Origin: an uncultured Gammaproteobacteria bacterium
Lineage (GTDB): Bacteria > Patescibacteriota > Patescibacteriia > 2-12-FULL-60-25
Direction of reading: 5' to 3'
Assembly: GCA_964623645.1 (NCBI GenBank)
Contig: CAZURG010000002.1
Location: 8,041-72,040 of the forward strand
DNA length: 64,000 nt
This document shows, in pieces, positions 1 to 20,253 of this stretch (the first letter of the stretch is position 1; each line of letters starts with the position of its first letter). Below the pieces are notes generated by a model. It did no database searches and was not told the DNA's origin. It saw only the letters and a list, made by a program, of their open reading frames with translations. The translations under genes were made by a program, and so were the position numbers.

Positions 1-1632
1 GTTCGTAAAAGTATGAATTGTCTCTCTAAAATACTCGATTATTGCTGGATATTTTACATATAGATAGGCAATCGCAAGTATATCTGAGAAACGAATGGAT
101 CTTATACGTGTCTGTTGTGAGTTCGCATATACGAACCTGCTTAGAATAAAACGCAGTTGATTGATTGTTCTATGTATAACACGCGGACTTTCTTTTATGA
201 GATATTCTGAAAACAAATGACTATATGCTTCAACGTGACTAGTCAAAAGCCCTTCTTCGGGATTTTTCCCGTGGGTGTAATTTGCAGGGTTGGGAATAAA
301 GTTCGAAGTACCAGTTTCGAGGGATTTCTGAGCGTCATTTTCTGAAAAATGAAATTCTTGAAACACGTTTCCAACTTGCTCAGCGATATACTCAGCTTTT
401 TTATCGACCGGGACGGGCGGAAGGTGGAACACGATGTCGATATTTTTTGGATCATTAAAAAGGTAGCTATTGATTAACTCCGCTTCTTCATTATGATTGC
501 TATTCCGAATGCGCTCCTGAAGCTCTCTAGGTGCGATACTTAAGATAAACGTAACGTAGATAGGTATGCCTTTTACGGCCAAATGTTTGATGCGCTCTAT
601 TATTTCGATAACGCGATATATTTCTGAGAATTTTGCTCTTTCGATTTCGTCTATAGTGATGATCCACTGATTTTCTTCAAACTCTGAAATGTTACCAAAG
701 TACTCAGCTACGTCGGACTGCGCATAGATCGTTGTGTCTGTACTGCCTTGTGGTTTTGCTTTCAATACTGTTGGAAATATTGATAGCTTCGATATTTGCG
801 AAAGAAGTTTTGACAAAATCCCGCCAAATTTTACTTCTTGAAGAGCACCATACAAAAAAGATCTGCTGGCTTCCTTCGCTGGAAGGATCTTCGGATAGCG
901 AGCTTGAATGGTATCCATCCATCTATTTGCAAAAAGTCGAGAAAAGTCACCCGCTTCATTTGTTTCAGTGAGAGATATGTGTGTATAGAGGGTCTTGTTA
1001 GCTTCCATTTCCTCTATAAGCATACGTACAAATGAAGACTTCCCGGAACCCAAGTCCCCATATACCGCTGAAACTGTTACCGGCGAATGTTTACTGGACG
1101 CAAGTTCAAGTATTTTCTCACGTACTTTTTCAGACGAGGATGAGAAGCCAAGTGCGTCATCCTTTTTTCCTACTGCTCCGGGAGAAAAGATGGCGTCTTT
1201 GAAAGAGTAGGCCTTCTTTCCCCAGTATTTGTATGCTGTTGAATGGAGTATCAATCCAAATACTGGATAGAGTAACGGCCAGGGACTAAATCCAAATCCC
1301 ATTAGAGATAAGATAATCTCTTTCCAGACGGGTACTAATAGAAAACTGTAAAATACATAGATGATCCAGGATGGATGTTGTCTTGATATCTGCGTTCGAA
1401 CTAGATCTTTTAATAGCGAGCTTCCCTTAGTTAAAGCAATCCATAAAATTGTAAGTAAAAACAAAACGAACCAAATGCCGCTGACACGACTGAAAAGAAA
1501 GCGCCAGAAGAAGTGATTAAAAAACCAATTGGTAAAAATGGCTAAACCTAGGCTAAGAATTGCCAGGGTCAACCAAAATTTTCCTGATGTGCGAACTCGT
1601 CCAATTTTAAATCCAAACATCTCATTTTCCAT
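1..1632 (-). CDS. KAP-family P-loop NTPase with an N-terminal 4-helix membrane anchor (3' end runs off the window)
   Basis: From my own reverse-strand translation. It is absent from the ORF track because its stop lies left of position 1. ATG at 1632 (alternative 1620) is preceded by an in-frame TAA. About four hydrophobic helices are followed by Walker A VYGDLGSGKSSF (~1036-1071) and Walker B NQWIITIDEIERAK (~631-672). This is the G-x-GSGKS and hhhhDE-x-x-R pattern of KAP NTPases. Confidence 0.7.
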   Translation of the reverse strand, partial: MENEMFGFKIGRVRTSGKFWLTLAILSLGLAIFTNWFFNHFFWRFLFSRVSGIWFVLFLLTILWIALTKGSSLLKDLVRTQISRQHPSWIIYVFYSFLLVPVWKEIILSLMGFGFSPWPLLYPVFGLILHSTAYKYWGKKAYSFKDAIFSPGAVGKKDDALGFSSSSEKVREKILELASSKHSPVTVSAVYGDLGSGKSSFVRMLIEEMEANKTLYTHISLTETNEAGDFSRLFANRWMDTIQARYPKILPAKEASRSFLYGALQEVKFGGILSKLLSQISKLSIFPTVLKAKPQGSTDTTIYAQSDVAEYFGNISEFEENQWIITIDEIERAKFSEIYRVIEIIERIKHLAVKGIPIYVTFILSIAPRELQERIRNSNHNEEAELINSYLFNDPKNIDIVFHLPPVPVDKKAEYIAEQVGNVFQEFHFSENDAQKSLETGTSNFIPNPANYTHGKNPEEGLLTSHVEAYSHLFSEYLIKESPRVIHRTINQLRFILSRFVYANSQQTRIRSIRFSDILAIAYLYVKYPAIIEYFRETIHTFTN

Positions 1633-1859
1633 AGCTTCAAACAGGCTATATCGATCGCATTATATACGCAATAAGCCTTCATTAAGCCCAAAGCTTCACT
1701 TTTAAGGGCTTCTAAGTTACCCTTATGACGTCTAGGTTCGAGTGTTAGAAACCCCAGTAGCAGGGCTAGCTTTGCTATATCAGGAGTCATTGACGCGCCG
1801 TAATGGGCACTCCTGATAAAACAAGCGCCAGAGACTCCGGTTTCTGACACTTGGGCCTA

Positions 1860-1887
1860 GACACCTCAGGGGTGTCCTTTTGTATTT
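1860..1887 (+). terminator. Rho-independent-like hairpin at the end of the 1633-1926 spacer
   Basis: gacacc-tcagg-ggtgtc followed by cttttgtattt on the + strand. No + strand CDS lies upstream, so it may close a leader or small RNA (see findings). Confidence 0.4.
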
Positions 1888-1926
1888 AGGCTTTCCTGAG
1901 TTTTACTCATTTGTCAGTAACTCTCT

Positions 1927-2511
1927 ATGGTCGTGGATTCAAAGACAGTAGGTTCATATCTAAAGAATAATAAAGTATTGTTGGCCGGCGTGTTGATTGC
2001 GCTCGCCCTCTCTTTCTATGGCGGGATGCGGTATCAGCAATACCGGTTCCAAAAAGCCGTGACGAGTGCGTTCGGCGAGCTCGGCAAAGCATTTGGCGAA
2101 GGCTTATCTGGTACTGGCTCAAGCGTGAAAGCAAGTGACACCAAGCCTAAAGAGAATCCGCTTAATGCAAAAGTTACTGTTGAGCTCCAGGAAAAGACAT
2201 TCGTGCCGGATGACTATTTCAGTCAGATCTCATTCAAACTTAAGCTCACGAACAAGACTGATAAAGCAATGAAAGGCGTTCAAGGGAAGCTTGTCTTCAA
2301 AGACATCTTTGATAACGAAATCAAGTCGGTAGGGGTGAGCTACGACAAGGCGATCCCGGTCGGAGAATCCAGGGTCTGGGAAGGCTCGATCTACTACAGT
2401 GAATCGTCTGCGGACGACGTGAAGCTTAAAGAAGCTAAACTCGCCGACCTCAAGTACGCTTGGGACACGAATACGATCGTTTTCGAGGACGGAACCAAGG
2501 AGACGAATTAA
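1927..2511 (+). CDS. Membrane-anchored or secreted hypothetical protein
   Basis: 194-aa ORF. N-terminal anchor VLLAGVLIALALSFYGGMRYQQY, then a K/D/E-rich, beta-rich-looking domain. The anchor motif is shared with the CDS at 52821-53258. Confidence 0.6.
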   Translation: MVVDSKTVGSYLKNNKVLLAGVLIALALSFYGGMRYQQYRFQKAVTSAFGELGKAFGEGLSGTGSSVKASDTKPKENPLNAKVTVELQEKTFVPDDYFSQISFKLKLTNKTDKAMKGVQGKLVFKDIFDNEIKSVGVSYDKAIPVGESRVWEGSIYYSESSADDVKLKEAKLADLKYAWDTNTIVFEDGTKETN

Positions 2512-2532
2512 CTATTCGTCTTTTTTCCTACT

Positions 2533-3462
2533 ATGCCTCTCCTAAAAATCCAGAACGATGTCCTATCTCTGTTGGAAGAGACCGACATCGCGCTTGAGAA
2601 AGACCTGCAAGCTCTTACCGAGAAGAATCTCGGTACTGTATTCGGTCTCGACTTCGTTTCGACGGAGTTCGCTCTCCAAGGGCTCCGCCTCGATACCGTC
2701 GCCTTCGATCCGGAGACGCGTTCGTTCGTCATTATCGAGTACAAGCGTGACCGGAGCTTCAGCGTCATCGACCAGGGCTTCGCATATCTCGCGCTCCTCC
2801 TCAATAACAAGGCAGATTTCCTGCTTGAATATAACGAGAAGCGGGGAGCGAGCTTGAAACGTGAAGAGGTCGATTGGAGCCAGAGTCGCGTGCTCTTTCT
2901 CGCCCAAAGCTTCACGGCGCACCAGCTCCAGGCCATCAACTTCAAAGATTTGCCGATCGAACTCTGGGAAGTCACGAAGTATGGGAATGAACTCATCTCA
3001 TACCATCAGATCGAAGCCAAGCAGTTCAGTGAGTCCCTGAAGACCGTGACGAAGAGCGAAGTCGTCTCGTCCGTGAGTCGGGAAGTCCGCGTCTACTCGA
3101 CTGATGAGATCGTAGGGAAGGCCAAGGGGTCGGTTCGCGACCTTATGGAAGCGTTTCGCGTACGTATCCTCGAACTCGATGGGCGTTTCGAGGAGAAGGC
3201 GAACAGCCAGTATCTTGCCTTCAAGATCAACCGACGGAACGTGCTCGCACTCACTCCTATGAAGGACGTGTTGCTCTTGAGCTTCCCCCGTATCGAACCC
3301 AAAGACCTGAACGATCCGTTGAAGCGGCTCGAGTCACGCGGTTCGGAAGAGGTATACGGCCAGAAGCTCACGGACATGAGTATCAAGGACGAGCACGATA
3401 TCCCGTATGCGCTTGAACTCGTGCAGCAGGTGATCGCTCGTCAGGATTCTTCCGCTTCTTGA
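2533..3462 (+). CDS. PD-(D/E)xK (NucS/DUF91-like) nuclease-fold protein with a DUF5655-like C-terminal domain
   Basis: 309-aa ORF. LDTVAFDPETRSFVIIEYKRD gives the D...E-x-K core typical of endonuclease NucS-like N-terminal modules. The C-terminal half resembles DUF5655 as I recall it. Confidence 0.6.
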   Translation: MPLLKIQNDVLSLLEETDIALEKDLQALTEKNLGTVFGLDFVSTEFALQGLRLDTVAFDPETRSFVIIEYKRDRSFSVIDQGFAYLALLLNNKADFLLEYNEKRGASLKREEVDWSQSRVLFLAQSFTAHQLQAINFKDLPIELWEVTKYGNELISYHQIEAKQFSESLKTVTKSEVVSSVSREVRVYSTDEIVGKAKGSVRDLMEAFRVRILELDGRFEEKANSQYLAFKINRRNVLALTPMKDVLLLSFPRIEPKDLNDPLKRLESRGSEEVYGQKLTDMSIKDEHDIPYALELVQQVIARQDSSAS

Positions 3463-3995
3463 TCGTCATCGTCTAAATCGTCATTAAGCTCGTATTTCTC
3501 AAGGAGCTTCAGAGTCTTCGCATTAAGCATCTCGTATCTCCCTTTCTTCTTTCCCGCTGGTATATTTGCCGGAGGGGGAACATATCCGGGAAGCCGTTTC
3601 ATAGCTTCGTCCAGAAAATCGATTTCTGGTCCATCGGACGATGCCTCACGCATGCGCGAAGGAGGTTTGTATCTCTCCTTATTATGATTTAGCCAGTAGG
3701 TCGAGGATTTATGGTCGCCACGCTTGATCCCAGCGATAATGTTGTTTTCCGCGAGGTCGTTAACAGTATCGATACTGATCGCCATCGCTTCGTCGACCTT
3801 TGTTCGGTACCTGTCGTCCTCGCTCATCCACTTATAGTGTGTCGAGCGAGAGATCTTCACCTTGCTGCACGCCGCTTCGACGATCGGATACTTTGAAAGC
3901 AGCTCGATCATAAGCTTCTTTGCCTGGCGAGCCCGAAGACGCTCCGGTTTGCGACCGGGAGGAGGGGAATGAGGCAAAGAAGCTTCAGGAGGCAT
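3441..3995 (-). CDS. Phage-type HTH protein (terminase-small-subunit-like or phBC6A51-type HTH)
   Basis: 184 aa. IVEAACSKVKISRSTHYKWMSEDDRYRTKVDEA...NNIIAGIKRGDHKSSTYWLNHNKERYKP matches the HTH plus helical pattern of small terminase-like proteins. It has an acidic tail. Its start at 3995 lies 1 nt from the upstream stop at 3997. Confidence 0.5.
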   Translation of the reverse strand: MPPEASLPHSPPPGRKPERLRARQAKKLMIELLSKYPIVEAACSKVKISRSTHYKWMSEDDRYRTKVDEAMAISIDTVNDLAENNIIAGIKRGDHKSSTYWLNHNKERYKPPSRMREASSDGPEIDFLDEAMKRLPGYVPPPANIPAGKKKGRYEMLNAKTLKLLEKYELNDDLDDDDQEAEES

Positions 3996-3996
3996 A

Positions 3997-4773
3997 TTAA
4001 ATCTTCACGGCGCTGATCCCCGTGAGTGTTTCGTAGCGTGTGATGATGGTGCGGCAATACTCAGGATCGAGTTCGATCGTGTACGCGCGACGTTTCGTCT
4101 GCTCACACCCAATCAAAGTAGATCCCGATCCCCCAAAGGGATCGTAGACCACGTCACCAATCTTCGAGCTGTTTAGGAGAAGCATCCGCAAAAGGCCGAT
4201 CGGCTTCATCGTGGGATGGAGTTTGCTCTTGTGTGGTTTGGGGTAGATGAGGACACTTTTGTCCTTAGAGCGTTGGAAAAGATGTGTCCCGTGCCAGCCA
4301 TAGGTGACAAGTTCGTGTTGGGGAAGATAATCCATCCGACCGATGATCGAATGGGTCTTCACCCAGATGAGAAGCTGCGTGAACTTGAAGCCCGCTTCGA
4401 GCAGCCCTTCCCGTAAGCTAAAAATCATCTTGTCCGAGTTGAAGATGTAGTAGGCGTTCTTCTTCGTGAGATGTTCCTTTACGGCCAAGAGCCAGTCCCG
4501 AGTGAAAGCGCTGTATTCTGCATCACTCTGGGCATGGTCATTCAGAATCGTCTTCGGTTTCGAAAGATGGTCGGCGATGCCCATCTTCGAGCTGACGTAA
4601 TCGATGCCATATGGGGGATCGGTCAGAATGAGGCTTGGCTGTGCACCCGCAAGGAGCGTACGTACCAGCGTCCGGTCTTTAGCGTCCCCGCAAGCTAATC
4701 GATGTTCGCCGAGCTTGAAGATGTCTCCAGGATTAACCGAGAAGGATGGCTTTGGTTCCGGTGAGTTTTTCAT
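3997..4773 (-). CDS. DNA methyltransferase, N6-adenine/N4-cytosine (N6_N4_Mtase family)
   Basis: 258 aa. Catalytic motif ILTDPPYGIDY and AdoMet motif DPFGGSGSTLIGCEQ. The N-terminal LGEHRLACGDA is typical of phage/plasmid ParB-associated methylases. Confidence 0.85.
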   Translation of the reverse strand: MKNSPEPKPSFSVNPGDIFKLGEHRLACGDAKDRTLVRTLLAGAQPSLILTDPPYGIDYVSSKMGIADHLSKPKTILNDHAQSDAEYSAFTRDWLLAVKEHLTKKNAYYIFNSDKMIFSLREGLLEAGFKFTQLLIWVKTHSIIGRMDYLPQHELVTYGWHGTHLFQRSKDKSVLIYPKPHKSKLHPTMKPIGLLRMLLLNSSKIGDVVYDPFGGSGSTLIGCEQTKRRAYTIELDPEYCRTIITRYETLTGISAVKI

Positions 4774-6013
4774 ATCGAGAGATGATGAGGTCGCAAAAGA
4801 TCGGTTCGATTTCGACCGTGTAGCAGATACGCTTCATTTGCTCGCAGGCGATGAGTGTTGAGCCCGAACCAGCAAAGAGATCAAGGACGATGTCGCCGAC
4901 GCGTGTACACCGTTTGAGGGCCTTCTCATGTAACGTCGGACTCTTTTCTGTGGGATGGGAATAATCCTGTCCCGGAAGGCGCTTCACGAGCCAGATGTTG
5001 AAGAGTTCCTCGATGTCCTCGAGCGTACGGTTTCCGATCCCAACTTCTTTATTTAGGACTTCGTTCAGGTTCTTGATGTCCGGGGAAAGATATGGCTTCC
5101 CTCGAATCGCGTAGACGCACGGTTCGTAGGCTTTGTTGAAGGCCGTGCCAGGGGTAACGTTAAAATTGTTTTTAATCCATAGGCATGTACGTTTCTTATC
5201 CAGTCCATGCTCTTTGAAGAGACTCTGCACAATGCCGACGTAGTTCTCATCGCACCAGTAGAAGACGTGGGCGTCTGGTTCCGTGACGAGAAGGGCGTTC
5301 CGCAATGTCGCCGCAAGGAAAGAGCGGTAGTCGGATTCAGAGAGGCTGTCGTTCGTTTTACCGCCGTACTTGCCCTTGGTTGAGACTCCATCGGTATAGC
5401 TTAAGCCGATGTTGTAGGGTGCATCGCTGTAAATAATGTTCGCGAGCTTTGTTCCCATGAGCTTCTTTACGACGGGCTCATCCGTGGAGCTACCACAAAG
5501 TAACCGATGTTCACCAAGGGCGTAGAGCTCACCGGGTTTTGTTTTAGGTTCCGTAATCTTCGAGATCTCTTTCTCTACATCGAACCCGTCATCGTCCGTT
5601 TCGAGCGTATCATTCCAAATACTCCCTAAGTCATCGTTATCAAACCCGACCTCAAGAAGTAGGGAAGTGTCGAACTCTTTGAGAAGGTCGTAATTCCAGT
5701 CGCCCACGTTTTTATTCAAGCGGAGGTTGAGCTCACGCTCTTTATCTTCCGCGAGCGAGACGTACACGACCGGGACCTCGGTGAGACCAAGTTCCTTCGC
5801 GACCGTCCAGCGAAAGTGACCACCAATGATGATACCTTTGCGATCTGGATGGATGTTAACGATAAGCGGGTCGACGAAGCCGAAGCGTTCGATGCTTTCG
5901 CGTAAGTGGCTCTTCGCGGCGTCGTCCCAGGTACGGGGATTCCAGGGGCAGGGCTTCAGGCTGTTGATGGGAGCCTGGATGACCTTCAGGGAGGTGATAG
6001 GAATGTTTGTCAT
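4733..6013 (-). CDS. ParB-like nuclease domain fused to an N6/N4 DNA methyltransferase
   Basis: The track ORF is 4733-6079. I prefer the internal ATG at 6013 (MTNIPITSLKVI). ParB_N motif: IIIGGHFRWTVAKELGLTEVPVVYV. Methylase motifs: IIYSDAPYNIG and DLFAGSGSTLIACEQ. It overlaps the next methylase gene by 41 nt. Confidence 0.85.
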   Translation of the reverse strand: MTNIPITSLKVIQAPINSLKPCPWNPRTWDDAAKSHLRESIERFGFVDPLIVNIHPDRKGIIIGGHFRWTVAKELGLTEVPVVYVSLAEDKERELNLRLNKNVGDWNYDLLKEFDTSLLLEVGFDNDDLGSIWNDTLETDDDGFDVEKEISKITEPKTKPGELYALGEHRLLCGSSTDEPVVKKLMGTKLANIIYSDAPYNIGLSYTDGVSTKGKYGGKTNDSLSESDYRSFLAATLRNALLVTEPDAHVFYWCDENYVGIVQSLFKEHGLDKKRTCLWIKNNFNVTPGTAFNKAYEPCVYAIRGKPYLSPDIKNLNEVLNKEVGIGNRTLEDIEELFNIWLVKRLPGQDYSHPTEKSPTLHEKALKRCTRVGDIVLDLFAGSGSTLIACEQMKRICYTVEIEPIFCDLIISRYEKLTGTKAILLG

Positions 6014-6053
6014 ACGGAATGAAGAAGAATAAAAATGGAGCGGAAACAAAAAC

Positions 6054-6121
6054 GTGCCCACTCCGTAGAGAGGGCACAAAAATCAAAAAAAGACTTTATG
6101 AATTCTCTACGGAGTGGGCAC
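6054..6121. repeat. 17-bp perfect inverted repeat (gtgcccactccgtagag / ctctacggagtgggcac) with a 34-nt spacer, nested with a shorter hairpin
   Basis: The arms are at 6054-6070 and 6105-6121. An inner gtgccc/gggcac hairpin is at 6054-6077. On the minus strand the structure is followed by gtttttgtttcc. It therefore probably terminates the 6236-6709 gene and/or acts as an operator upstream of the methylase operon. Confidence 0.6.
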
Positions 6122-6235
6122 GACCGAGGCAAAGCCTCTTCGACGCGTTAGACGCGTCTCCTATCGATCAAAAGATCGAAATGAGTGATACACCACTGAT
6201 GGTATATGACGTGAAATGAACTTGTTATGAGTATA

Positions 6236-6709
6236 TCATTTTCGCTTTTTCTTTTGCAAGGCGTCGTATTGCTCGTTCCAGTCATTTCCAAAGAATATCG
6301 GTACCCCTCCTTTTGGTACACAGAGACGTACAGCTTTTCCCTGCGATCTCGCTTTTTCCATGATCTCTTTGATCGGTCCGAGGGGTAGTTCTATGGTTGA
6401 TTGCCCAGTAAGATCCATGTCGCTGAGCACATTGCCGTCCGCGTAAGCTTGAAGAGATTTCCCATTTCGCATCGACTTTTCTACGCCTCGAGCAAACGTG
6501 GTATCCCCTCGCATTTTGGTTGCGTGTAACACAGCGTACCTAAGTGTAATAGCGACCTCTTTATCGGTTTCAGAGATATAAAATTGATCAGTCGATCCAC
6601 TTTTATTAGGAATTTCGGCAATTTCATCTGTCATTGGTCCGTTTGTGGCTACGAACTCGATGGATTCGGCGATGAGGGGAGATTTTTGGCTTTTGGATTG
6701 ATTGCGCAT
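6236..6709 (-). CDS. Hypothetical protein (157 aa), downstream partner of the HEPN-like gene
   Basis: The ORF starts 46 nt downstream of the 6756-7625 stop on the same strand. I recognise no motif. Confidence 0.55.
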   Translation of the reverse strand: MRNQSKSQKSPLIAESIEFVATNGPMTDEIAEIPNKSGSTDQFYISETDKEVAITLRYAVLHATKMRGDTTFARGVEKSMRNGKSLQAYADGNVLSDMDLTGQSTIELPLGPIKEIMEKARSQGKAVRLCVPKGGVPIFFGNDWNEQYDALQKKKRK

Positions 6710-6755
6710 ATTTAAACCCTATAACAAGGGTGTTTATTTGAGTAGAGAGGTATTT

Positions 6756-7625
6756 CTAGATATGCACGTCGCTATTCTTCACGATAATCGCGCCATTATC
6801 GTGGACTATATTTTTGACGCAAGTAATTCTTTCTCCAAACTCATCCGAGTTACTTTTTTGGTTCTCTGCATGATCATTATTCCATCGTGTGATCATAATT
6901 CTCACTGCGCCATTAATTATTTCAAGCAGATCTTCCGGAGAAATAAAGATCCCTTGAAAATTCGTTTTTCTTTCGAGTTCGCGAGATTTTTCATTGAGCA
7001 AATCATCAGCGACGCAGACTTTATTCTGCACTGAAAAGAAGTGAGTTAGACAATTGCGCAGCTCCCTTAAGTCTTTTGTTGTTAAATGTCTCAAACGGTC
7101 GGGGTTTTTTTGACCCCACTTGTTGCTTTCGTGTAGGCAGAATCTATTCAAAAATGAATCAATCTCCTTTTTATTCATTGCAAATCCAATGATTTTTTCT
7201 TTGTCATATGTTTGTTTCTCGTAAGCCAGATTTAAACAGAATAGTGTATCTAAGTATGCAAATAATGCGACCACCTTAGATCGTGTAAATGGTTTTATCG
7301 TGGTATTTTCAAGAAAAGCAATGGGATTTTGAGATAGGGTGTGCTCGAAAGTGAGAGACTGTTCTTTCAGGACACTGAATGATTTCTCGATCAGCTTAAA
7401 TAGTTCTTTAAAATATGATCTGATATTCAACATCTTTCTATCGATCTCTAACATGCTCTTCACCTCTTTCTCTATTTCTTGCAAGAAAGAAATGATAGGG
7501 AGTAGATCGGGGGATATAACGACCTTATCTCCATCAAAGACAAAAAAAGTTGCTTCATTGAATACTGGAGCTTGTTCGGTATCGAGGTGTCCGGAAGATT
7601 GCTTTTTTGATGTTTGAGGAGCCAT
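6756..7625 (-). CDS. HEPN-like (Abi-type) protein with an RNxxxH motif
   Basis: 289 aa. DLRELRNCLTHFFS gives R-x4-H (codons at 7041-7058) in a helical C-terminal half. This resembles the Abi_2/HEPN families. Confidence 0.5.
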   Translation of the reverse strand: MAPQTSKKQSSGHLDTEQAPVFNEATFFVFDGDKVVISPDLLPIISFLQEIEKEVKSMLEIDRKMLNIRSYFKELFKLIEKSFSVLKEQSLTFEHTLSQNPIAFLENTTIKPFTRSKVVALFAYLDTLFCLNLAYEKQTYDKEKIIGFAMNKKEIDSFLNRFCLHESNKWGQKNPDRLRHLTTKDLRELRNCLTHFFSVQNKVCVADDLLNEKSRELERKTNFQGIFISPEDLLEIINGAVRIMITRWNNDHAENQKSNSDEFGERITCVKNIVHDNGAIIVKNSDVHI

Positions 7626-7725
7626 ATGAGTTGATAATAGGTAGAAATCGCCAAGTTATCAAACGATCCTTCTCTTCTACCTTTTCTAAACCGATGAGAT
7701 GCTAATATAGAATAAACTTTAACCT

Positions 7726-9252
7726 ATGCCCAAAAAATCCACGAAGAAACCACGAGTAACTAGAACCTACGGGCCGATCCATTTTGAGGATCTCGACCCA
7801 CATCGTTTTGAAGACCTAGTTCGCGAGTTAATCTATGATTATAAGGATTGGCAATCTATCGAAGCTACAGGAAGAGGTGGAAACGATGATGGTTTTGACA
7901 TTCGCGCTTATGAGAAGCAAAAGGTAGACCAGTCACAGCGGGAAGAGGATGGTGAGCAAAATGAACTGCACCCTATGCTCGGAAACCAGTGGATGATTCA
8001 AGGAAAAAGAGAGAAGGTGATTGGACCAAAACGCGTCGAGGAAATCATCGCTGATGTAGATGCTGAGAATCCTCCATACGGTTATATACTGGCGGCGTCA
8101 GCAAATTTTTCCAAAGATTCTTATGACACCTTTCGAGAAGAGTTGCGCAAGAAAGGAGTGATGGAGTTTCACTTATGGGGTAGGGCTGAATTGGAAGATA
8201 TGCTCCATTTTCCAAAGAATGATCATATACTTTTCACGTTTTTTGGCATTTCATTAGTCAGTAGAAAGCGATCTAGAACAACTGAGATACGGCGAGTGGT
8301 GATTCAGAAGAATAAGCTGTACAAACTGTTGGGAGAGGGACGTGGCGAGTTTCATCAATCTGTTCTTCTCAGAGATTCAAACGATGTTAACTATCCGTAT
8401 GAAGACGAGTATGGCGACTTTGATACCTTCCCTCGTTGGCGTGAATATAAGGCAATTAAGAATCATACTGATGGTGTTATTTTCGCTATACGCAAGCATT
8501 ACGCCTATATAGATAAAGAAAAGAAGGAGTATGACTACACTGAGGTGGTAAACCTGATTTACAGGGAAAGCGATTCGCAGGATAAAAAACAAAAGCAACA
8601 GGAGGATCGCAGAAAAGTGGAAAGCTTCTGGGAGTATTTACCCCGCCACAGTCAAGCAACTTTTATTAGGAATGGTTTAGTTCAATATGACGAAATCCTA
8701 GTTATTGATGAGAAAGGGGATAATGCATATGAATTCCCACATCTATTTGTTGACTTTAATGGTAGGAATTACCCATTCGCTGGAAGCTACGAATACTTAG
8801 ATGTGCAAGAGGATCAGATTTCTCTTAAAGATTATAAGCGTATAAAAAAGTTCCCCGATTCTTTTTTAGAACCTAGTATAGGAACGATACACGAAGACAA
8901 AAATATTACTTTAAGTAACCAACATTTCAGCATGTTAAAGAACGATAATGAAGAGTTTTTCGCACTTTATGATTTGGACGGTAGGTATAGCTTCCTTCAG
9001 TCCACGGATTTGTTAAAAATTGAAAACCAGGATCAAGGAAGTAGCTCTAATTACTATCTCCGAATTACTCATGTAGAGAGAGTGAATTTAGGAAAGTATC
9101 TTGAAAAGTACCCAAATCTAGAGTGGGCAATCGAGCGTCAGATAGAGGGAGGTCTCGATCTCGAAAAAACTTTAAACATCTGTGAGTTTAAAAAAACCTA
9201 TAGCTTCGTTGTAGAGCAAGAGAAGAGTAAGCGGGATAAGAAGAAATCGTGA
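7726..9252 (+). CDS. Protein with an N-terminal Mrr-like (restriction endonuclease, PD-(D/E)xK) domain and a ~340-aa unknown C-terminal region
   Basis: 508 aa. FEDLVRELIYDY...ATGRGGNDDGFDIRAY...WMIQGKRE matches the Mrr_cat pattern FE-x-L...G-x-DGG-x-D-I...Q-x-K. The C-terminal part is unrecognised. Confidence 0.65.
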   Translation: MPKKSTKKPRVTRTYGPIHFEDLDPHRFEDLVRELIYDYKDWQSIEATGRGGNDDGFDIRAYEKQKVDQSQREEDGEQNELHPMLGNQWMIQGKREKVIGPKRVEEIIADVDAENPPYGYILAASANFSKDSYDTFREELRKKGVMEFHLWGRAELEDMLHFPKNDHILFTFFGISLVSRKRSRTTEIRRVVIQKNKLYKLLGEGRGEFHQSVLLRDSNDVNYPYEDEYGDFDTFPRWREYKAIKNHTDGVIFAIRKHYAYIDKEKKEYDYTEVVNLIYRESDSQDKKQKQQEDRRKVESFWEYLPRHSQATFIRNGLVQYDEILVIDEKGDNAYEFPHLFVDFNGRNYPFAGSYEYLDVQEDQISLKDYKRIKKFPDSFLEPSIGTIHEDKNITLSNQHFSMLKNDNEEFFALYDLDGRYSFLQSTDLLKIENQDQGSSSNYYLRITHVERVNLGKYLEKYPNLEWAIERQIEGGLDLEKTLNICEFKKTYSFVVEQEKSKRDKKKS

Positions 9253-9255
9253 ATT

Positions 9256-9813
9256 TCAAATCCTTAAGATTTTCGCCTCATTCCACGCCGTCCAAGGAGT
9301 CTCGCGATAGCGAGCCAGGTTCTCTTCCGATGGATTCAAGATAAAGCCAATCCCATCTCGATGCTCGCGTTGAACAAGGAAAGTCATGCCAGTCGTCCCT
9401 TCAACAACCATCCATCTTAGGACTGAGTTCTTTGGGGACTTCTCTCGCGTATACCCAATGAGCTTGGCGAGTTCATCGAAGTTATCGTGCTGTTGCCACC
9501 AGTCTCGTGAATACCCTTTGCTTACCCCTGCGTGAGAGGGGATGGATTCGTGTTCCTTCGGGTCTTCTTTGTGGTTTAGATATGCGAGAATGTCTGTTCG
9601 ACGGAAAAGAAGCTTTCCAGCTACGCGGTAAACGTTCACGGCATGTCGATCGATCATACGTCTCACAACCTTTTCCTCCACTTCCAGCGTTTGAGCTAGT
9701 TCTGGAGTATCGAGGAATTCGACATCCTCTTGTAAGAGGAGTGAGTCAGGTTTCTTAAATACGGCTGGATCGATGCCAAATGCGTCAGGAGTGTTGGGTT
9801 TGAATAGCGGCAT
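9256..9813 (-). CDS. Excisionase/MerR-type HTH (HTH_17-like) protein with an unknown C-terminal domain
   Basis: 185 aa. LDTPELAQTLEVEEKVVRRMIDRHAVNVYRVAGKLLFRRTDILAYL is an HTH_17-like segment. Its start lies 1 nt after the stop of the upstream 87-aa gene. Confidence 0.55.
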   Translation of the reverse strand: MPLFKPNTPDAFGIDPAVFKKPDSLLLQEDVEFLDTPELAQTLEVEEKVVRRMIDRHAVNVYRVAGKLLFRRTDILAYLNHKEDPKEHESIPSHAGVSKGYSRDWWQQHDNFDELAKLIGYTREKSPKNSVLRWMVVEGTTGMTFLVQREHRDGIGFILNPSEENLARYRETPWTAWNEAKILRI

Positions 9814-9814
9814 A

Positions 9815-10078
9815 TTATTGATTCCAGCGAGGAGTCATTCCACGTTCAACTAAGGCAATGACTTCATCGTACTTAAAAAGACGTTTTCGGAGCACTCGAT
9901 AACAAGCGATCTGTCCAGAATCGGCAAGGCGATAAACGCTGGCGGTGGAGATTCTTAAAAGTTTACCGACTTCCTTAACCGTCATGAGGCGAAGATCGGG
10001 CTTTGGGGTGTTTGATGGCGTTGGATTCTTCGTTGATCCACTACCATTGGATCTTGTGTTTGTAGAACGAAAGGCCAT
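9815..10078 (-). CDS. Excisionase-family DNA-binding protein (HTH_17)
   Basis: 87 aa. LMTVKEVGKLLRISTASVYRLADSGQIACYRVLRKRLFKYDEVIALVE is a classic AlpA/Xis-type HTH. Confidence 0.7.
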   Translation of the reverse strand: MAFRSTNTRSNGSGSTKNPTPSNTPKPDLRLMTVKEVGKLLRISTASVYRLADSGQIACYRVLRKRLFKYDEVIALVERGMTPRWNQ

Positions 10079-10144
10079 AGGACGTTCTGTAAGGGGAGTT
10101 AGAAGAGTTCAATTACTAGTCTATACCTAAGTCTTAAAACGCCA

Positions 10145-10166
10145 AACGCCGCACGGATGCGGCGTT
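10145..10166 (-). terminator. GC-rich 9-bp hairpin with a tetraloop (aacgccgca-cgga-tgcggcgtt)
   Basis: Perfect stem. On the minus strand it is followed by tggcgttttaag. It sits in a short GC-rich patch (10141-10205) inside an AT-rich spacer. Confidence 0.35.
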
Positions 10167-10476
10167 CAGGCGACTCCTTTACCCAGCCTCATCGGCGACG
10201 CACCTTCACATATTAATGAGAATTAATAAGCAAGATCGCAAAAAGGAGTATTTAAAATTTTACAGCTTATTCCAGTGAACGCAAGACGTTCCACGTTTTC
10301 TTTAGAATGAATTCGGCTCAGTTATGGTAAGTCACGGTCACTGATCCTAACGATCATTTTTTTGTAATGTATCAGCTTGCTTTTTAGAAGCTCTTAGAGT
10401 CATATAGTGCTGATATAGTCTTAAATACGCTTTGAAAAAGCCGCCATTCGCTGAATCTAAAACGTCATGTTTCTCT

Positions 10477-12258
10477 ATGCCTAAAGATAAACAAAAGAAG
10501 AGTAATATCGCGATTTGGCGAATCGACACGAACCTTGAGGTTTGTTTGAATAAGAGCACTGATGAAATCATTCAAATGATCCAGCGGGTTTATACGAAAC
10601 GAGACTTGACCCCGCTGCCGTTCAATGGGACCTCCTATGAAGGGAAGAACGTGAAGGGTTTTCAAGCTGCTAGGTATTCAGATGGTCTTCAAGTCTTTTT
10701 AGCGCCCTTGTTACGCTCTGGCTTGTCTGATGAAGATAAGAATAGACTTTTTTCAAGTGTTAACAAAGACATCGTGCTGTTTATTTACGATGAAAGCGAC
10801 ATTTTTGCTGTGACGAGTGGAACGGGATATTCAATCATTCAGAACTACTTAGACGAACGCTTCCCATTCGAGATTGCAAAAAGGATGTTGAAGGGCGACT
10901 TTAAGAGTGCAGAGATGCGCGGTCTTACTGGCTTGGTATATGCGCAATCAAGGAACTTTCGACGAGATTACAATTTTTCTCGTAAGGAAGCCTTCGGTAA
11001 GGTATGGAAAAAGCTAACAGGAAGTATCGATCCGGCTGTACTAGAGGGTAGTGCATTCATTCGTGATTTTTTATCCGACGACAGTGGAAAAAAGATTAAT
11101 GCAGACGTAAAGTCGTCTTTCACTTTTCGTAAGACAATCAATCTTAAACAGGTTTTTTCCGCTGTGAAAGAGCTGCAGAGCCTACTTTCTAAAGATCTGA
11201 CGACGGATCAGGCTAATGCTTTTATCTTTCTAGATACCCTCAAAGAGGTCACTAAGCAGGAAACGAAGGAAGTCTTGAAAGAGGCGCTAGTTACGGAGCT
11301 GTATAGCTTTGTGAGTTCTTCCGATAGCCAAGAGTGCGATTATGACTTCTGCCATCCAAAAGAGATGACCAAATTCCTCTACGGAACAGACTATAAAATA
11401 TCCCGAGATCTTACGTGGGAGGATGCGCCATCTTCAGCAGAAGTTCTGATGAAGATTCGTAATTCAGATAAGATAGATAAAAGCAGTCTAGAGAACTTCA
11501 AGGAAGCATTCTTTGGTTTGTCCATGAGCTTTCTGGAGGAGGATGAAGGATTGATGCATAGTGACGATCTTTGGAAATACTTTCATGGTGAAGTTGAGCA
11601 AGGGGATAAGAAGTATTTCCTAATCGACGGAAAGTTCTACGAGGTGATTGGTGAGTTCTTAAAGACCCTCGGAACGGATTTTGAGGACTGCGTCTTCGGA
11701 GATGACTCTATTTTGACTAGCGCCATTCCACTGAACAAATGGGATCCTGCGGAAGATGAGTCGGACTATAATGAAAGGCAAGGGAAGGTAGATCTTTTCT
11801 ACTTTGGCGACAAGGTGTTCTTAAAGAAAGGGACAAAAGGGAAGATCGAGCTTTTTGATCTTCTGTACGTGCAAGATGGAAAGGCCTACATCATCCAGGT
11901 AAAAGACGGTTTCGGGGCTTCTATTCGAGATGCTTGCTCACAGATTCAAATGGCAGCCGAGATTATCGAGCACGATCTTCAAGTCGTGAATAACCCAGAG
12001 TTGAGTCGATACTTTGTAGAGTTTAGTAAGCTAAACCATGGTCTAGATCGGAAGCAATTTTTAGAGCTTCTTAGGTTAGAGCGCCACTACGTGCTTGCAT
12101 CTGCTACAAGACAGGAATTTACTAAAGAAGCCTTTAAGAAAGGGATGTTTAAGTCTGAAATAGCAAAATTCGAAGTTTTAGGAGTGGCTCATGAATTCAA
12201 AGCTAATGACTACAAGTTCCATCTTGCCCGTATTGAGCGCGTTAGTGGTCGAGTATAG
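10477..12258 (+). CDS. DUF6119/TIGR04141-like 'sporadically distributed' protein with a C-terminal PD-(D/E)xK-like motif
   Basis: The track ORF starts at TTG 10432. The first ATG is at 10477 (MPKDKQKKSNIAIWRI). IVLFIYDESDIFAVTSGTGYSIIQNYLDERFPFEIAKRML...RGLTGLVYAQSRNFRRDYNFS follows the family pattern as I remember it. ELFDLLYVQDGKAYIIQVKDG (11857-11904) gives D...Q-x-K. Confidence 0.55.
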   Translation: MPKDKQKKSNIAIWRIDTNLEVCLNKSTDEIIQMIQRVYTKRDLTPLPFNGTSYEGKNVKGFQAARYSDGLQVFLAPLLRSGLSDEDKNRLFSSVNKDIVLFIYDESDIFAVTSGTGYSIIQNYLDERFPFEIAKRMLKGDFKSAEMRGLTGLVYAQSRNFRRDYNFSRKEAFGKVWKKLTGSIDPAVLEGSAFIRDFLSDDSGKKINADVKSSFTFRKTINLKQVFSAVKELQSLLSKDLTTDQANAFIFLDTLKEVTKQETKEVLKEALVTELYSFVSSSDSQECDYDFCHPKEMTKFLYGTDYKISRDLTWEDAPSSAEVLMKIRNSDKIDKSSLENFKEAFFGLSMSFLEEDEGLMHSDDLWKYFHGEVEQGDKKYFLIDGKFYEVIGEFLKTLGTDFEDCVFGDDSILTSAIPLNKWDPAEDESDYNERQGKVDLFYFGDKVFLKKGTKGKIELFDLLYVQDGKAYIIQVKDGFGASIRDACSQIQMAAEIIEHDLQVVNNPELSRYFVEFSKLNHGLDRKQFLELLRLERHYVLASATRQEFTKEAFKKGMFKSEIAKFEVLGVAHEFKANDYKFHLARIERVSGRV

Positions 12259-12309
12259 ACTTCCGCTAATATTTAGTAAGAGTAAGATTGATTAAATTGT
12301 GAAAATGCT

Positions 12310-12819
12310 ATGGAACAAGCAGAGTTATTGGGTAAAGTAAAATCAGCTGTAAAAAAGTTGATCGTAGATGATGCTCACTTACTGACATATAGCGTTTCCG
12401 AGAGGAGTATTTGTCACCAATTAGCGATATATCTCGCCGCGGAGTTTGCGGGGTATTCGGTTGATTGTGAATACAATCGGCACGAAGATGTTTCAAAAAG
12501 ATTAAGCTTCAAATTAGACGATTCGCAGACACCTCGTGATCCAGATGACCATGGAGTTTGTGTTTCACCAGACATAATTATTCATGAAAGAGGTACTGAC
12601 GCGCGTAACCTGCTCGTCATTGAGCTAAAGAAAGATAGTAACCCTTTAAGGAAGGGCGACTACGATCTTAAGAAAATCCGAGCGTATGTAGATGAGATAG
12701 GTTATGATTTTGGTCTGTTTATCGAGCTTGGCACTGGTGAGAATATAGGTATGAAAGATGCTGAGTTAGCGACTAAAGAATCCGATAAGCTGGTTAACGT
12801 ACTCTCGATCTTGTCATAG
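12310..12819 (+). CDS. Small PD-(D/E)xK nuclease-fold protein
   Basis: 169 aa. It starts 51 nt after the DUF6119-like gene with no hairpin between them. Motifs: SERSICHQLAIYL...DCEYNR...SPDIIIHERGTDARNLLVIELKK (D...E-x-K). Confidence 0.55.
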   Translation: MEQAELLGKVKSAVKKLIVDDAHLLTYSVSERSICHQLAIYLAAEFAGYSVDCEYNRHEDVSKRLSFKLDDSQTPRDPDDHGVCVSPDIIIHERGTDARNLLVIELKKDSNPLRKGDYDLKKIRAYVDEIGYDFGLFIELGTGENIGMKDAELATKESDKLVNVLSILS

Positions 12820-12831
12820 CTCATAAGTTGT

Positions 12832-13350
12832 TTAGTTTGCGACTTGTCCGATTCCGGGATTTTCTGATTTAAGAAACACATATTCATACGGCTTTCCTTC
12901 CTTATTCAGAATAATACGCGCTTTAAGCTCACCTTTTCGTACCATTTTCCTCACGGTAGCCGAATGTAGTTTGAACTTGCTCTCAAGTTCCCACATGAGC
13001 CATCTGCTATCGCGATCCGTGAAGACTTCGGGGGGAACGATCCCTTCATCTAGCGCCCTTTGACAATCTAGACATTTTTGCCCGTATTTATCGTACCAGC
13101 TCGAGTCTCCACTGATGGTCACGTGACAAAGAATGCAGCTATACGTCCCATCTGTTAGATGGAATCCATTCGGGTGCTCTTTAAGCATCTCTTCACGCCT
13201 GGTCTCTCTTTGAGAGATTTTAAGCAGAAGTCCGAAGAATCCAATAAGGGGGATGGCCTCTGCTTTGGCTCTATCGTCGCTGATTTCCTCTCCAAACGAC
13301 TCTTTCCAGACTTCCTTGAACTCATCGATTGCTTTTTGGGGTAATTGCAT
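12832..13350 (-). CDS. Zinc-ribbon plus HTH_17-like DNA-binding protein
   Basis: 172 aa. CILCH...CLDCQ (CxxC...CxxC), then WLMWELESKFKLHSATVRKMVRKGELKARIIL (HTH). It is convergent with the 12310-12819 gene and divergent from the nucleotidyltransferase cassette. Confidence 0.55.
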   Translation of the reverse strand: MQLPQKAIDEFKEVWKESFGEEISDDRAKAEAIPLIGFFGLLLKISQRETRREEMLKEHPNGFHLTDGTYSCILCHVTISGDSSWYDKYGQKCLDCQRALDEGIVPPEVFTDRDSRWLMWELESKFKLHSATVRKMVRKGELKARIILNKEGKPYEYVFLKSENPGIGQVAN

Positions 13351-13429
13351 ATAATGCTAGATTATTTCTCTAATTGCCCTGGTTACAACCCCTCCAAACA
13401 CCCCGGCAAAACTCTTTGGAATCGTGTAC

Positions 13430-13530
13430 GATTTGTCCGATTTCCAGCATGACCCACATGCCTCAAAACCCCTCCCGAAAGTCCCTCAAGCTCCTTGCAA
13501 AGCCGAGTTCTGTACCCGCCCGTCGAGCCA
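13430..13530 (+). repeat. Direct repeat copy 1 (~100 nt) upstream of the nucleotidyltransferase gene
   Basis: It starts with gatttgtccgatttc and ends with cgtcgagcca. It aligns along its length with 14443-14540, roughly two-thirds to three-quarters identical by eye. Shared blocks: gatttgtccgatttc, acccacat, aaag-ccct, gtcgagcca. Confidence 0.7.
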
Positions 13531-13535
13531 TGAGC

Positions 13536-13597
13536 GACAGTGTCTGGCGACCCAGACACTGTCAGTCAAAAAAGCACCACAAACGTGGTGCTTTTTT
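13536..13597 (+). terminator. Tandem hairpins, the second a bidirectional rho-independent terminator
   Basis: gacagtgtctgg-cgac-ccagacactgtc (12-bp stem, 13536-13563), then aaaaaa-gcaccac-aaac-gtggtgc-tttttt (13568-13597). Confidence 0.65.
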
Positions 13598-13641
13598 GTT
13601 GTTTGGCATTGGGCTGGTCAAGAGCTATATTATCGGTTGAT

Positions 13642-14427
13642 ATGTCTCAAATTGATCTACGATCGGTCCTTGATCATCTCTCGCATTCACCAAAAGTAAA
13701 AGCCATTTTCACAACAGGCACAACCGCTTCTGGATTAGGGCCATCGAGCGATATCGATCTTGTAGTTATCTTAGAAAAAAATGATGCAGGTATAAAGTCA
13801 GCCTACGCAATGATCGAAAACCGTTTCGCTGACATCTTTTTCTTTGATTTGGATTTTGTGAAAAAGGTGGCGCAGTTAGAGAAAATCTCTGCTAATGGTT
13901 TTGAAGGCATATTTATAACATGGCTAGCGAAAGGAAGGATCGAAAAAGATGAAAACGGACTTTTGTCAGAACTAAAAGCGAAATCAGAATCCAAGTCGCA
14001 CGCGCTTAGTATCTCTTTGGAAGAAAAACAAGATAATTGGTTCAAAATAAATTATAACTTCATCGCCAATCAGCGGTATTTTCATTCTAAGGATAACTTG
14101 TATCACACCGCTTTGGAAATCAGGCTTCTTTATAGTGTCAGTGAATTGATTGTGGCGTATTTTTCTCTGCGAGGTATTCCATGGAGAGGGGAAAAAGAAG
14201 CTGTAAAGTATCTCGAATCGAATGATGCGGAAGCGCTCAAGGTTTTCATTGATTATACAAAGAGTCAATCGCTTGCAGATAGATTCCGTTCATACCAAGC
14301 GCTCTTCAAGGTGGTATTGTATGGTGATTTTCAAGTATGGGATAAAGATTTCATGGTCGTGAAAGATGTGAAGAATCAAATCAATGAGACATCGGCTAGC
14401 TATATACAAGAGCTGATTGGGAAATAG
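13642..14427 (+). CDS. Pol-beta-superfamily nucleotidyltransferase with a helical C-terminal domain (KNTase/ANT-like architecture)
   Basis: The track ORF is 13540-14427. The upstream part runs through the terminators, so I use the ATG at 13642 (MSQIDLRSV). TTGTTASGLGPSSDIDLVVIL is the G-S...D-x-D NTase signature. Confidence 0.7.
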   Translation: MSQIDLRSVLDHLSHSPKVKAIFTTGTTASGLGPSSDIDLVVILEKNDAGIKSAYAMIENRFADIFFFDLDFVKKVAQLEKISANGFEGIFITWLAKGRIEKDENGLLSELKAKSESKSHALSISLEEKQDNWFKINYNFIANQRYFHSKDNLYHTALEIRLLYSVSELIVAYFSLRGIPWRGEKEAVKYLESNDAEALKVFIDYTKSQSLADRFRSYQALFKVVLYGDFQVWDKDFMVVKDVKNQINETSASYIQELIGK

Positions 14428-14442
14428 GGTTAAGCGGTATGT

Positions 14443-14540
14443 GATTTGTCCGATTTCTCACATAACCCACATCCGTTAAAAAACTTCTTTAAAGCCCTAA
14501 GAAGCCCTTAATAAACGAGCTCTTATCAGCCGTCGAGCCA
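14443..14540 (+). repeat. Direct repeat copy 2, immediately downstream of the nucleotidyltransferase stop
   Basis: See copy 1. It begins 16 nt after the TAG at 14425-14427 and runs straight into the terminator at 14541. Confidence 0.7.
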
Positions 14541-14598
14541 AAAAATCTCCGCTAGAAATAGCGGAGATTTTTTAATGCCCTAAATGGGTTTCGGAATG
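14541..14598 (+). terminator. Bidirectional terminator plus conserved 3' motif (copy A of a second repeat family)
   Basis: aaaaatctccgc-tagaaata-gcggagatttttt, then aatgccctaaatgggtttcggaatg. Compare 16688-16747. Confidence 0.6.
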
Positions 14599-16210: not shown

Positions 16211-16660
16211 ATGGAACATATACACTACGCGATCCAGATCAACGCTCCTCAAAGAACGGTTTGGGACACGATGCTCGGCGAAGAAACGTACAAACAATGG
16301 GCATCCGTTTTCAATTCGGACGCTTCCGTGGAATCCTTCGTTGAAGGCGGCTGGGAAGAAGGGGACGACATTCGTTTTTTAGGTAAGGAAAAAGATGGCA
16401 CCGTTTCAGGCATGATCGGGAAAATACAAGTATCCAAGCCGGGTGAATTTATTTCTATCAAGTACTCGGGTGAAATCATGCAGGGCAAGGAAAGTACGTA
16501 TGGACCGGATGAGTTGTATTTCGAGAACTACACCTTCAAGGAAAAAGACGGCGGAACGGAATTGACGGTAGACATTGACGTTAAGGATGAATACAGGGAC
16601 ATGTTTAACGGCATGTGGCCAAAGGCCTTGGAAGCGTTAAAGCGGCTGGCGGAGAGATAA
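16211..16660 (+). CDS. SRPBCC-superfamily protein (AHSA1/START-like)
   Basis: 149 aa. IQINAPQRTVWDTMLGEETYKQWASVF and the size fit Aha1-like SRPBCC domains. Confidence 0.7.
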   Translation: MEHIHYAIQINAPQRTVWDTMLGEETYKQWASVFNSDASVESFVEGGWEEGDDIRFLGKEKDGTVSGMIGKIQVSKPGEFISIKYSGEIMQGKESTYGPDELYFENYTFKEKDGGTELTVDIDVKDEYRDMFNGMWPKALEALKRLAER

Positions 16661-16687
16661 AGGAGGTCCTGTCGCAAGAGGCGAAAG

Positions 16688-16747
16688 AAAAATCTCCGTC
16701 ATCTTTGCTTGACGGAGATTTTTCATCCCCCAAATGGGATTGGAACG
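16688..16747 (+). terminator. Terminator plus conserved 3' motif (copy B of the 14541-14598 repeat)
   Basis: aaaaatctccgtc-atctttgctt-gacggagattttt, then catcccccaaatgggattggaacg. It shares the stem sequence and the a-t-N-ccc-N-aaatggg-N-tt-N-ggaa-N-g tail with copy A. Confidence 0.6.
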
Positions 16748-20243: not shown

Positions 20244-20253
20244 TTCGCCAAGT

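Follow-up and report, generated by a model that had tools for sequence, protein, structure and literature searches.

We analysed a 64,000-nucleotide (nt) stretch of DNA (the window; NCBI GenBank assembly GCA_964623645.1, contig CAZURG010000002.1, positions 8,041 to 72,040) in which a nucleotidyltransferase (NTase) gene is bracketed by two direct repeats. This repeat element of about 110 nt, here named EL, is likely to represent the conserved arm on the island side of the distal attachment site (attR) in integrative elements that insert at the 3′ end (…GGAGCCA) of tRNA-Asn(GTT) and tRNA-Gln(CTG) genes. The first copy, together with a repeated tRNA flank, closes a low-GC, defence-type island linked to tRNA-Asn (island A), and the NTase gene with the second copy is an older, recombinase-less unit of a tandem array. 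The hosts of these elements are one family of small-genome, Patescibacteria-type bacteria.

The repeat pair and the tRNA-Asn island

The window lies on contig C2 of its own 1.23-Mb genome (G000). Coordinates without a prefix are those of the window.

C2:3307-3381, same strand as EL: tRNA-Asn(GTT), intact by ARAGORN, 4.7 kb before the window start
C2:3376-3458, + strand: left copy of an 83-nt repeat, beginning with the last 6 nt of tRNA-Asn
C2:5354-6658, − strand: large serine recombinase of 434 amino acids (aa), outside the window and 2 kb from tRNA-Asn
G000:C2:3459-21564 (window part 1..13524), no strand: island A, about 18.1 kb, starting 4.6 kb ahead of the window
13424-13530, + strand: EL copy 1, putative island-side arm adjoining the distal attachment site of island A
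13525-13607, + strand: right copy of the 83-nt repeat, 82/83 identical to the left copy, directly after the copy 1 core
13531-13568, + strand: hairpin 1, with 17-nt arms, following copy 1
13567-13598, + strand: intrinsic, bidirectional-looking terminator, AAAAAAGCACCAC-AAAC-GTGGTGCTTTTTT (A-tract/T-tract), following hairpin 1
13642-14427, + strand: NTase open reading frame (ORF), 261 aa, two-domain, weak match to Pfam PF01909
14437-14540, + strand: EL copy 2, putative distal arm of the NTase unit
14540-14598, + strand: terminator X and its tail, with perfect 15-nt arms (14540-14573) and a flank unlike that of copy 1
16655-16747, + strand: degenerate third EL 3′ end (~16655-16690), then a second terminator X and tail (16688-16747), after an AHSA1/SRPBCC gene
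20203-20607, + strand: backbone anchor gene, whose orthologues were used for site occupancy

The two copies are co-oriented, about 107 nt long and each followed by a terminator. BLAST gives them 72% identity across ~100 nt (E = 1.2e-4 in a search of the whole genome) and a 111-column alignment gives 64%; the blocks GATTTGTCCGATTTC, ACCCACAT, GTCGAGCCA and CCGTCGAGCCA are the same in both. The initial annotation of this DNA had recognised the repeat and several of its shared blocks, and both are real, the similarity beginning 6 nt further 5′ than it had placed it; the hairpin and bidirectional terminator that it described after copy 1, and the terminator after copy 2, are likewise present. Copy 1 is C-rich and G-poor (41 C and 20 G in the 111-nt stretch counted), and its final ~26 nt resemble a tRNA 3′ end, terminating in GAGCCA. 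Copy 2 is more AT-rich and more diverged.

A tRNA/tmRNA scan of the window found no such gene; the tRNA-Asn in question stands upstream of it on the contig. The 83-nt repeat is made up of GAGCCA, which is the last 6 nt of tRNA-Asn, hairpin 1, the terminator and GTTGTTTGGC, and hairpin 1 occurs in this genome only after copy 1 and directly after tRNA-Asn. Because this tRNA flank recurs right after copy 1, the copy constitutes the last ~100 nt of the island, beside the distal attachment repeat. The tRNA-end sequence GTCGAGCCATGAGCGAC reads as an imperfect palindrome centred on the tRNA end.

Island A has a GC content of 0.35-0.52 against a genome mean of 0.60, with a drop from ~0.62 between the repeats; low GC begins just past tRNA-Asn and continues to ~1.4 kb beyond the right repeat. 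Its genes encode a KAP NTPase, two N6_N4 methylases (one with ParB_N), Mrr_cat, DUF6119, PD-Lambda-3_A and HTH_17 proteins, the last from three excisionase-type ORFs of which one adjoins EL. The 434-aa recombinase bears the Resolvase catalytic (PF00239), Recombinase (PF07508) and Zn_ribbon_recom (PF13408) domains by which large serine recombinases are recognised, and its PDB relatives are SPbeta SprA and TP901-1 integrase. The marks of a tRNA-gene-targeting island that were found here are an intact tRNA, a far-end repeat, an internal recombinase, foreign composition and variable occupancy.

The order along the contig is tRNA-Asn, 83-nt repeat, island A, EL copy 1, 83-nt repeat, NTase, EL copy 2, terminator X, a stretch of gene debris with tspO and AHSA1, an EL remnant, terminator X and backbone. 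The third unit, which holds the debris, tspO and AHSA1, is bounded by the copies of terminator X. In this arrangement the NTase would owe its bracketing to its place as the only cargo gene of a small middle unit that has no recombinase. The units appear to have arrived separately and not by local duplication, since copy 1 is nearer to the copies of other genera and since the order of units differs between loci: the NTase and AHSA1 units stand in the opposite order at loci L008 and L010, and the units of L008 read NUDIX/AHSA1/DUF6798/NTase.

EL in related genomes

A sequence-only model of EL was searched against 127 genomes of the same GTDB family. It found the element in 34 of them and in 12 of 33 genera, each such genome carrying 1-4 copies, which frequently cluster within a few kb on the same strand; the first full copies outside the window's genome had come from BLAST against all fetched loci. 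That genome itself holds only two copies plus one weak match, yet the family is widespread. The ~110-nt C-rich core ends in GAGCCA in all aligned copies, and partial copies always keep the 3′ end, with 5′ truncation at varying points, among them positions 21, 53, 66 and 87. After the core stands a hairpin with a terminator (two types), a third sequence type or a plain terminator. The 5′ part contains a CGATTT(G/C) direct repeat, with one extra duplication in G050, which may hint that an accessory protein binds there. Copy 1 shares 87-88% identity with EL copies of other genera, against only 64-72% with copy 2. Outside this set, a scan of viral contigs with two 16-mers gave 93 loci, all chance matches with a real EL in none, and a gapped-pattern scan of metagenomes gave only two contigs of ~1.2 kb.

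The neighbours of EL are varied and accessory: NUDIX, AHSA1, YunG, APH, DUF6122, glyoxalase, SET, a CsoR-like repressor, DNA glycosylase, RibD_C, a YbaK-type editing domain, protein kinase, reverse transcriptase and Trp repressor. At L008 one EL lies between the NUDIX and AHSA1 genes and a second after AHSA1, at L010 EL lies upstream of an AHSA1 gene, and G069 has four EL units in 3.4 kb.

EL is tied to two tRNA genes in these genomes. The layout of tRNA-Asn or tRNA-Gln, island, EL and tRNA-flank repeat was found in 11 genomes. In nine of these (G000, G050, G051, G032, G054, G061, G081, G052 and G059), EL follows tRNA-Asn on the same strand at a distance of 0.9-39 kb, and in two (G062 and G063) it follows tRNA-Gln(CTG) at 0.9-3.2 kb; the two tRNAs share the 3′ end CGGAGCCA. 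For a random site, the chance of such linkage is ~0.02 per genome. In G050, which belongs to another genus, a recombinase 68% identical to that of island A lies at the same distance from tRNA-Asn, a 19.2-kb island is closed by EL and a 111-nt tRNA-flank repeat (110 identical), and a second EL stands 39 kb downstream of the tRNA. In G051 the interval measures 9.3 kb and the repeat 108 nt (101 identical), and G063 and G052 carry other large serine recombinases within 1 kb of tRNA-Asn. Facing contig ends hold the tRNA and the EL array in G064 and G069, the pattern to be expected where an assembly breaks at a repeat.

The junctions point in the same direction. The sequence after the GAGCCA of EL matches the sequence after the GAGCCA of the tRNA, with flank types common to both. 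An unoccupied tRNA-Asn (G062, G069, G056) is followed by a plain 'ACAAAnA + terminator', like several terminal ELs. The simplest case is G061, in which tRNA-Asn with hairpin 1 is followed by 1.9 kb and then by EL with a plain terminator; here, as in the NTase unit, the two junctions have only GAGCCA in common. Three islands carry repeats of 83-111 nt that extend beyond GAGCCA.

Occupancy of the site varies between relatives. The anchor gene lies 1.8 kb from tRNA-Asn in G062 (no EL), 5.4 kb in G061 (one EL) and 24.9 kb in the window's genome, and the empty site of G062 is not clean, owing to local rearrangement. A CoA-transferase gene (17727-18845) was rejected as a backbone anchor, since it is absent from 10 relatives and hence accessory too.

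Some further observations concern the same loci. In G062 (L220, G062:C1:654000-668000) the genes flanking tRNA-Asn are rearranged and inverted relative to G000:C2, orthologues of C2:815-2587 lying downstream of the tRNA and those of C2:27.9-31.6 kb upstream, which suggests an inversion with one end at the tRNA-Asn hotspot. The tRNA-Asn(GTT) gene is interrupted at position 35, in the anticodon loop, by an insert of 343-572 nt in five genomes (L109 in G061, L110 in G069, L112 in G032, L113 in G054 and L116 in G048) and is uninterrupted in the window's genome. ARAGORN calls these inserts introns and labels two of the five genes tRNA-Thr despite their tRNA-Asn 5′ half; they may be group I introns in tRNA genes of the candidate phyla radiation (CPR) type. 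The unit that separates tRNA-Gln from the first EL in G063:C10 is taken up by a reverse-transcriptase (RVT_1) gene of 510 aa (L092 2279-3811). Bins such as L010 and L026, among others, clearly belong to this Patescibacteria-type family and are titled 'uncultured Gammaproteobacteria bacterium'; they are probably mislabelled.

Other features near the repeats, and the weak match elsewhere in the genome, are these.

12310-12819: 169-aa ORF, PADLOC PD-Lambda-3_A, E = 1.8e-30
12832-13350, − strand: 172-aa ORF, the final gene of island A, Cys-rich in one stretch and weakly matching HTH_17 (excisionase-type)
12835-12853, + strand: third short match to the EL 5′ block (16/19, GTTTGCGACTTGTCCGATT), within the 3′ end of the 172-aa ORF
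13603-13631, + strand: NTase promoter-like site, TTGGCA-17-TATATT, ending 10 nt ahead of the ATG
G000:C7:38505-38584, − strand: weak EL-like match, E about 0.005-0.04, model positions 3-78, on a contig without tRNA genes

The 172-aa ORF is divergent from copy 1. It has no match in PADLOC or NCBIfam and no homologue adjoining EL in other genomes, and is at most a candidate directionality or accessory factor. The 19-nt match within this HTH/zinc-ribbon ORF sits 590 nt upstream of copy 1 and could be a scrap of another copy or a common protein-binding motif (TTGTCCGATT).

The NTase gene has 251 homologues, the named ones being Patescibacteria-type (Uhrbacteria, Giovannonibacteria, Paceibacterota). 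Its promoter-like site is the sole good + strand promoter in the scan, and in the absence of a Shine-Dalgarno sequence a nearly leaderless mRNA is predicted, an arrangement likewise seen at L007 and L008. The three closest homologues, at 70-72% identity (L007-L009), have a terminator and a TTGGCA-17-TATAnT promoter upstream and pieces of EL on both sides; the terminator at 13567-13598 is kept upstream of NTase homologues with compensatory changes (G-C to C-G in the stem). The AlphaFold model (pLDDT 94) has as its nearest folds ANT(4′)/kanamycin NTase, LinB, ANT(6) and Hailong HalB, with TM-scores of 0.4-0.58, while PADLOC, NCBIfam and the PDB by sequence gave no match, and there is no HEPN partner. 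The NTase looks like ordinary cargo, with no sign of a partner RNA.

A proposed stacked insertion and its alternatives

In the mechanism that we favour, the free element would carry a two-arm attachment region, in which one arm is EL and the second, P′, comprises GAGCCA, hairpin 1, the terminator and ~30 further nt. Insertion would place the hairpin and terminator that the element brings with it behind the tRNA (attL), and the far end would read EL, GAGCCA and then the pre-insertion tRNA flank (attR). Repeated insertion at one tRNA would stack units, and three such events would give the observed order. We infer that the serine recombinase catalyses insertion and that the crossover falls at or beside GAGCCA; the 5′ ~80 nt of EL would bind an accessory factor or the recombinase, and the small units would be mobilised in trans, now or formerly. 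The long repeats may derive from homologous hairpin/terminator arms of incoming and resident elements, and a terminator borne by the element may keep the tRNA gene properly terminated after insertion.

This mechanism predicts four junctions. The circle of island A would read EL copy 1 – 83-nt repeat – GACGCTTGGGGAGG (13424-13607 joined to C2:3459 onward), and the healed chromosome would read tRNA-Asn – 83-nt repeat – ATTGGGCTGG, then the NTase. The circle of the NTase unit would read EL copy 2 – GAGCCA – TGAGCGACAG, and a chromosome that has lost this unit would read EL copy 1 – GAGCCA – AAAAATCTCC.

Several observations weigh against this mechanism. All genomes are metagenome bins, in which some adjacencies rest on assembly. 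Most EL-bounded units lack a recombinase, and a few weak EL matches lie away from a tRNA (C7:38505-38584 in the window's genome, G062:C2:261590 and G063:C6). Large serine recombinases normally use sites of ~40-50 bp with a common core of 2-12 bp and do not recombine attP with attL; the repeats of 83-111 nt, the stacking beside a resident element and the conservation of all 110 nt exceed this textbook need. EL may also have an additional role at the RNA level.

On one alternative, the EL-bounded units of one or two genes would be not decayed islands but a working cassette system, in which small non-autonomous circles (cargo, EL and P′) are captured and shuffled at tRNA-Asn/Gln by large serine recombinases acting in trans. 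We regard this as possible but rather unlikely. If true, ultra-small Patescibacteria genomes would possess a counterpart of the integron that works by serine recombinases, and the 110-nt EL would be its cassette-side site. The likeness to integron cassettes with their attC sites is that small accessory genes (NTase, NUDIX, SRPBCC, glyoxalase, APH, DHFR-like), singly or in pairs, form co-oriented arrays in which each is followed by a recombination-associated element of ~100 nt. Unlike attC, EL is conserved in sequence (64-88%) and forms no attC-like imperfect palindrome, and the array is anchored at a tRNA and not at attI. An integron proper was rejected: the sole PF00589 gene of the genome lies on contig C3, and there is no IntI-type tyrosine recombinase. 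Stacked insertion behind the tRNA is closest to one proposal of the initial annotation, that the repeats are recombination sites or a cassette boundary; that proposal holds in so far as each repeat stands at the distal end of one of the integrative units that are stacked behind tRNA-Asn.

It is improbable that the repeats arose in the absence of any site-specific element, whether by local tandem duplication or by homologous recombination that spread a terminator or 3′ untranslated module. Gene conversion would indeed give long (83-111 nt), near-identical flank repeats such as those seen here. However, the elements are anchored at two tRNA genes with a common 3′ end, a serine recombinase stands at the tRNA-proximal end in several genomes, and the G061 junctions have only GAGCCA in common. 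The remnant of a tandem duplication that the initial annotation had considered is further contradicted by the greater similarity of copy 1 to the copies of other genera than to copy 2.

A decidedly improbable reading is that EL, the hairpin and the terminator form an independently transcribed small RNA of ~190 nt, either cargo or a regulator of the island, with a C-rich, unstructured 5′ part whose CCUCC-like motifs could pair with ribosome-binding sites, followed by two hairpins. An intrinsic + strand terminator ends every copy, about a third of the copies lack an upstream gene in the same orientation, the copies of different genera are highly similar at the nucleotide level, and TATAGG/TATACT-like boxes lie just upstream of a few copies. 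Yet no promoter is conserved across 21 copies, and the terminator is explained as the transplanted terminator of the tRNA. Copy 2 lacks CCUCC motifs, and partial copies keep their junction-side 3′ end, as a DNA site would. A TATAAT box at 13350-13355 had been taken as a possible start for such an RNA; the box exists, but it coincides in part with the start codon of the minus-strand ORF at 12832-13350, and the promoter scan gives it no matching −35 element.

Tests of structure and coding gave concordant results. In Rfam, neither the whole window nor the region reached the gathering score, the only match being a chance-level one to RNAI on the two hairpins. Single folds of both copies on both strands did not outperform those of shuffled sequences (z = +1.05 and −1.70 on the + strand), and consensus folding with RNAalifold and pair counting on 4 and 17 copies gave no supported structure and no covariation above controls, the consensus energy over 17 copies being −0.5 kcal/mol. 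A GCATG-ACCCA-CATGC mini-hairpin was discarded, as it does not beat shuffled or slid controls. The view that the repeats are non-coding is borne out, as every frame is interrupted somewhere among 18 copies and the indel lengths are not multiples of three; a small ORF, the 91-aa frame open over copy 1, was accordingly rejected, its frame not being kept in other copies. EL as a copy of tRNA-Asn or of its intron was rejected as well: EL showed no similarity to the introns, and its final 32 nt agree with the 3′ ends of many tRNAs to much the same degree (17-19/32), which indicates generic tRNA-likeness only.

The proposal that EL is an NTase-specific RNA or DNA partner (an antitoxin-like RNA, a substrate, or a cis-regulatory leader and trailer) is very improbable and is largely refuted by the distribution of EL. 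Homologues of at least 70% identity (L007, L008, L009, G056) do carry decayed, EL-like remnants on both sides, with the same upstream hairpin and promoter, which in our interpretation reflects a shared mobile unit and not functional pairing. Outside the window's genome, however, no full EL abuts an NTase gene (the G056 copy is 5′-truncated), the others lie near unrelated genes, and ~50 more distant NTase loci have no EL beside the gene. The NTase has its own promoter, downstream of a terminator, and its fold is that of a two-domain small-molecule NTase, not of a minimal MNT antitoxin. A type III toxin-antitoxin or MNT-HEPN module was rejected on the same grounds of neighbouring genes, missing HEPN partner and two-domain ANT/KNTase-like fold.

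Known systems and significance

The closest described system is the family of ssrA islands of Dehalococcoides (McMurdie et al. 2011, PMC3146451). As here, low-GC islands stand in tandem downstream of one small-RNA gene, each ending in a repeated copy of that gene's 3′ end; a module with a CcrB-like large serine recombinase occupies the reverse strand beside attL; and the islands include a ParB-domain protein and, on the inner side of the distal repeat, a conserved motif. Recombinase-less units occur in both systems and were read in Dehalococcoides as cis-mobilisable or accreted (PMC3146451). The systems differ in their target (tRNA-Asn/tRNA-Gln here, ssrA there), in their host, which is Patescibacteria-type here, and in the island-side arm, which measures ~110 nt here and 15 nt in Dehalococcoides. 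The repeat described here also lies almost wholly downstream of the gene, with a hairpin and terminator, and no second small recombinase (DsiA/CcrA-like) was seen in our elements.

Other mobile elements share some of these properties. The staphylococcal cassette chromosome (SCC, SCCmec) inserts at the 3′ end of one essential gene, rlmH, by means of the large serine recombinases CcrAB or CcrC. Its likeness to the elements described here lies in serine-recombinase insertion, tandem composites, repeated attachment sequences and recombinase-less neighbours (also PMC3146451), but the SCC target is protein-coding, its repeats are ~15-18 bp, its host belongs to another phylum, and no ccrA-like partner is found here. 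The tycheposons of Prochlorococcus (Hackl et al., bioRxiv 10.1101/2020.12.28.424599) also place cargo elements at specific tRNA genes of streamlined genomes and stack units with partial tRNA snippets between them, and a minority of them use a large serine recombinase. Unlike our elements, they mostly encode a lineage-specific tyrosine recombinase and replication genes, and their boundaries are marked by tRNA fragments, not by a long non-tRNA arm (bioRxiv 10.1101/2020.12.28.424599); none of the tycheposon hallmark genes was found here. Tyrosine-integrase tRNA islands, as catalogued by Islander and TIGER (PMC4383910), likewise combine an intact tRNA on one side with a displaced repeat on the far side and have an internal integrase and foreign composition, but the present elements use a serine recombinase, and their repeat holds only the last 6 tRNA nt and extends into the flank.

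In the literature searched we found no paper on tRNA-linked serine-recombinase islands in Patescibacteria-type bacteria. The repeat pair would be an insertion scar of an ordinary kind left by an element family that appears undescribed. The notable traits of this family are that the element supplies its own hairpin and terminator to the tRNA and that its arm is long and conserved. A puzzling local pattern is thereby explained by a tRNA-linked insertion hotspot 10-18 kb away, and an 18-kb defence island is precisely delimited, which gives context to other findings in the window. EL is a potential search handle for mapping such islands in metagenomes. More broadly, these analyses point to a family of serine-recombinase elements that moves accessory and defence genes among genera of small-genome, Patescibacteria-type bacteria.

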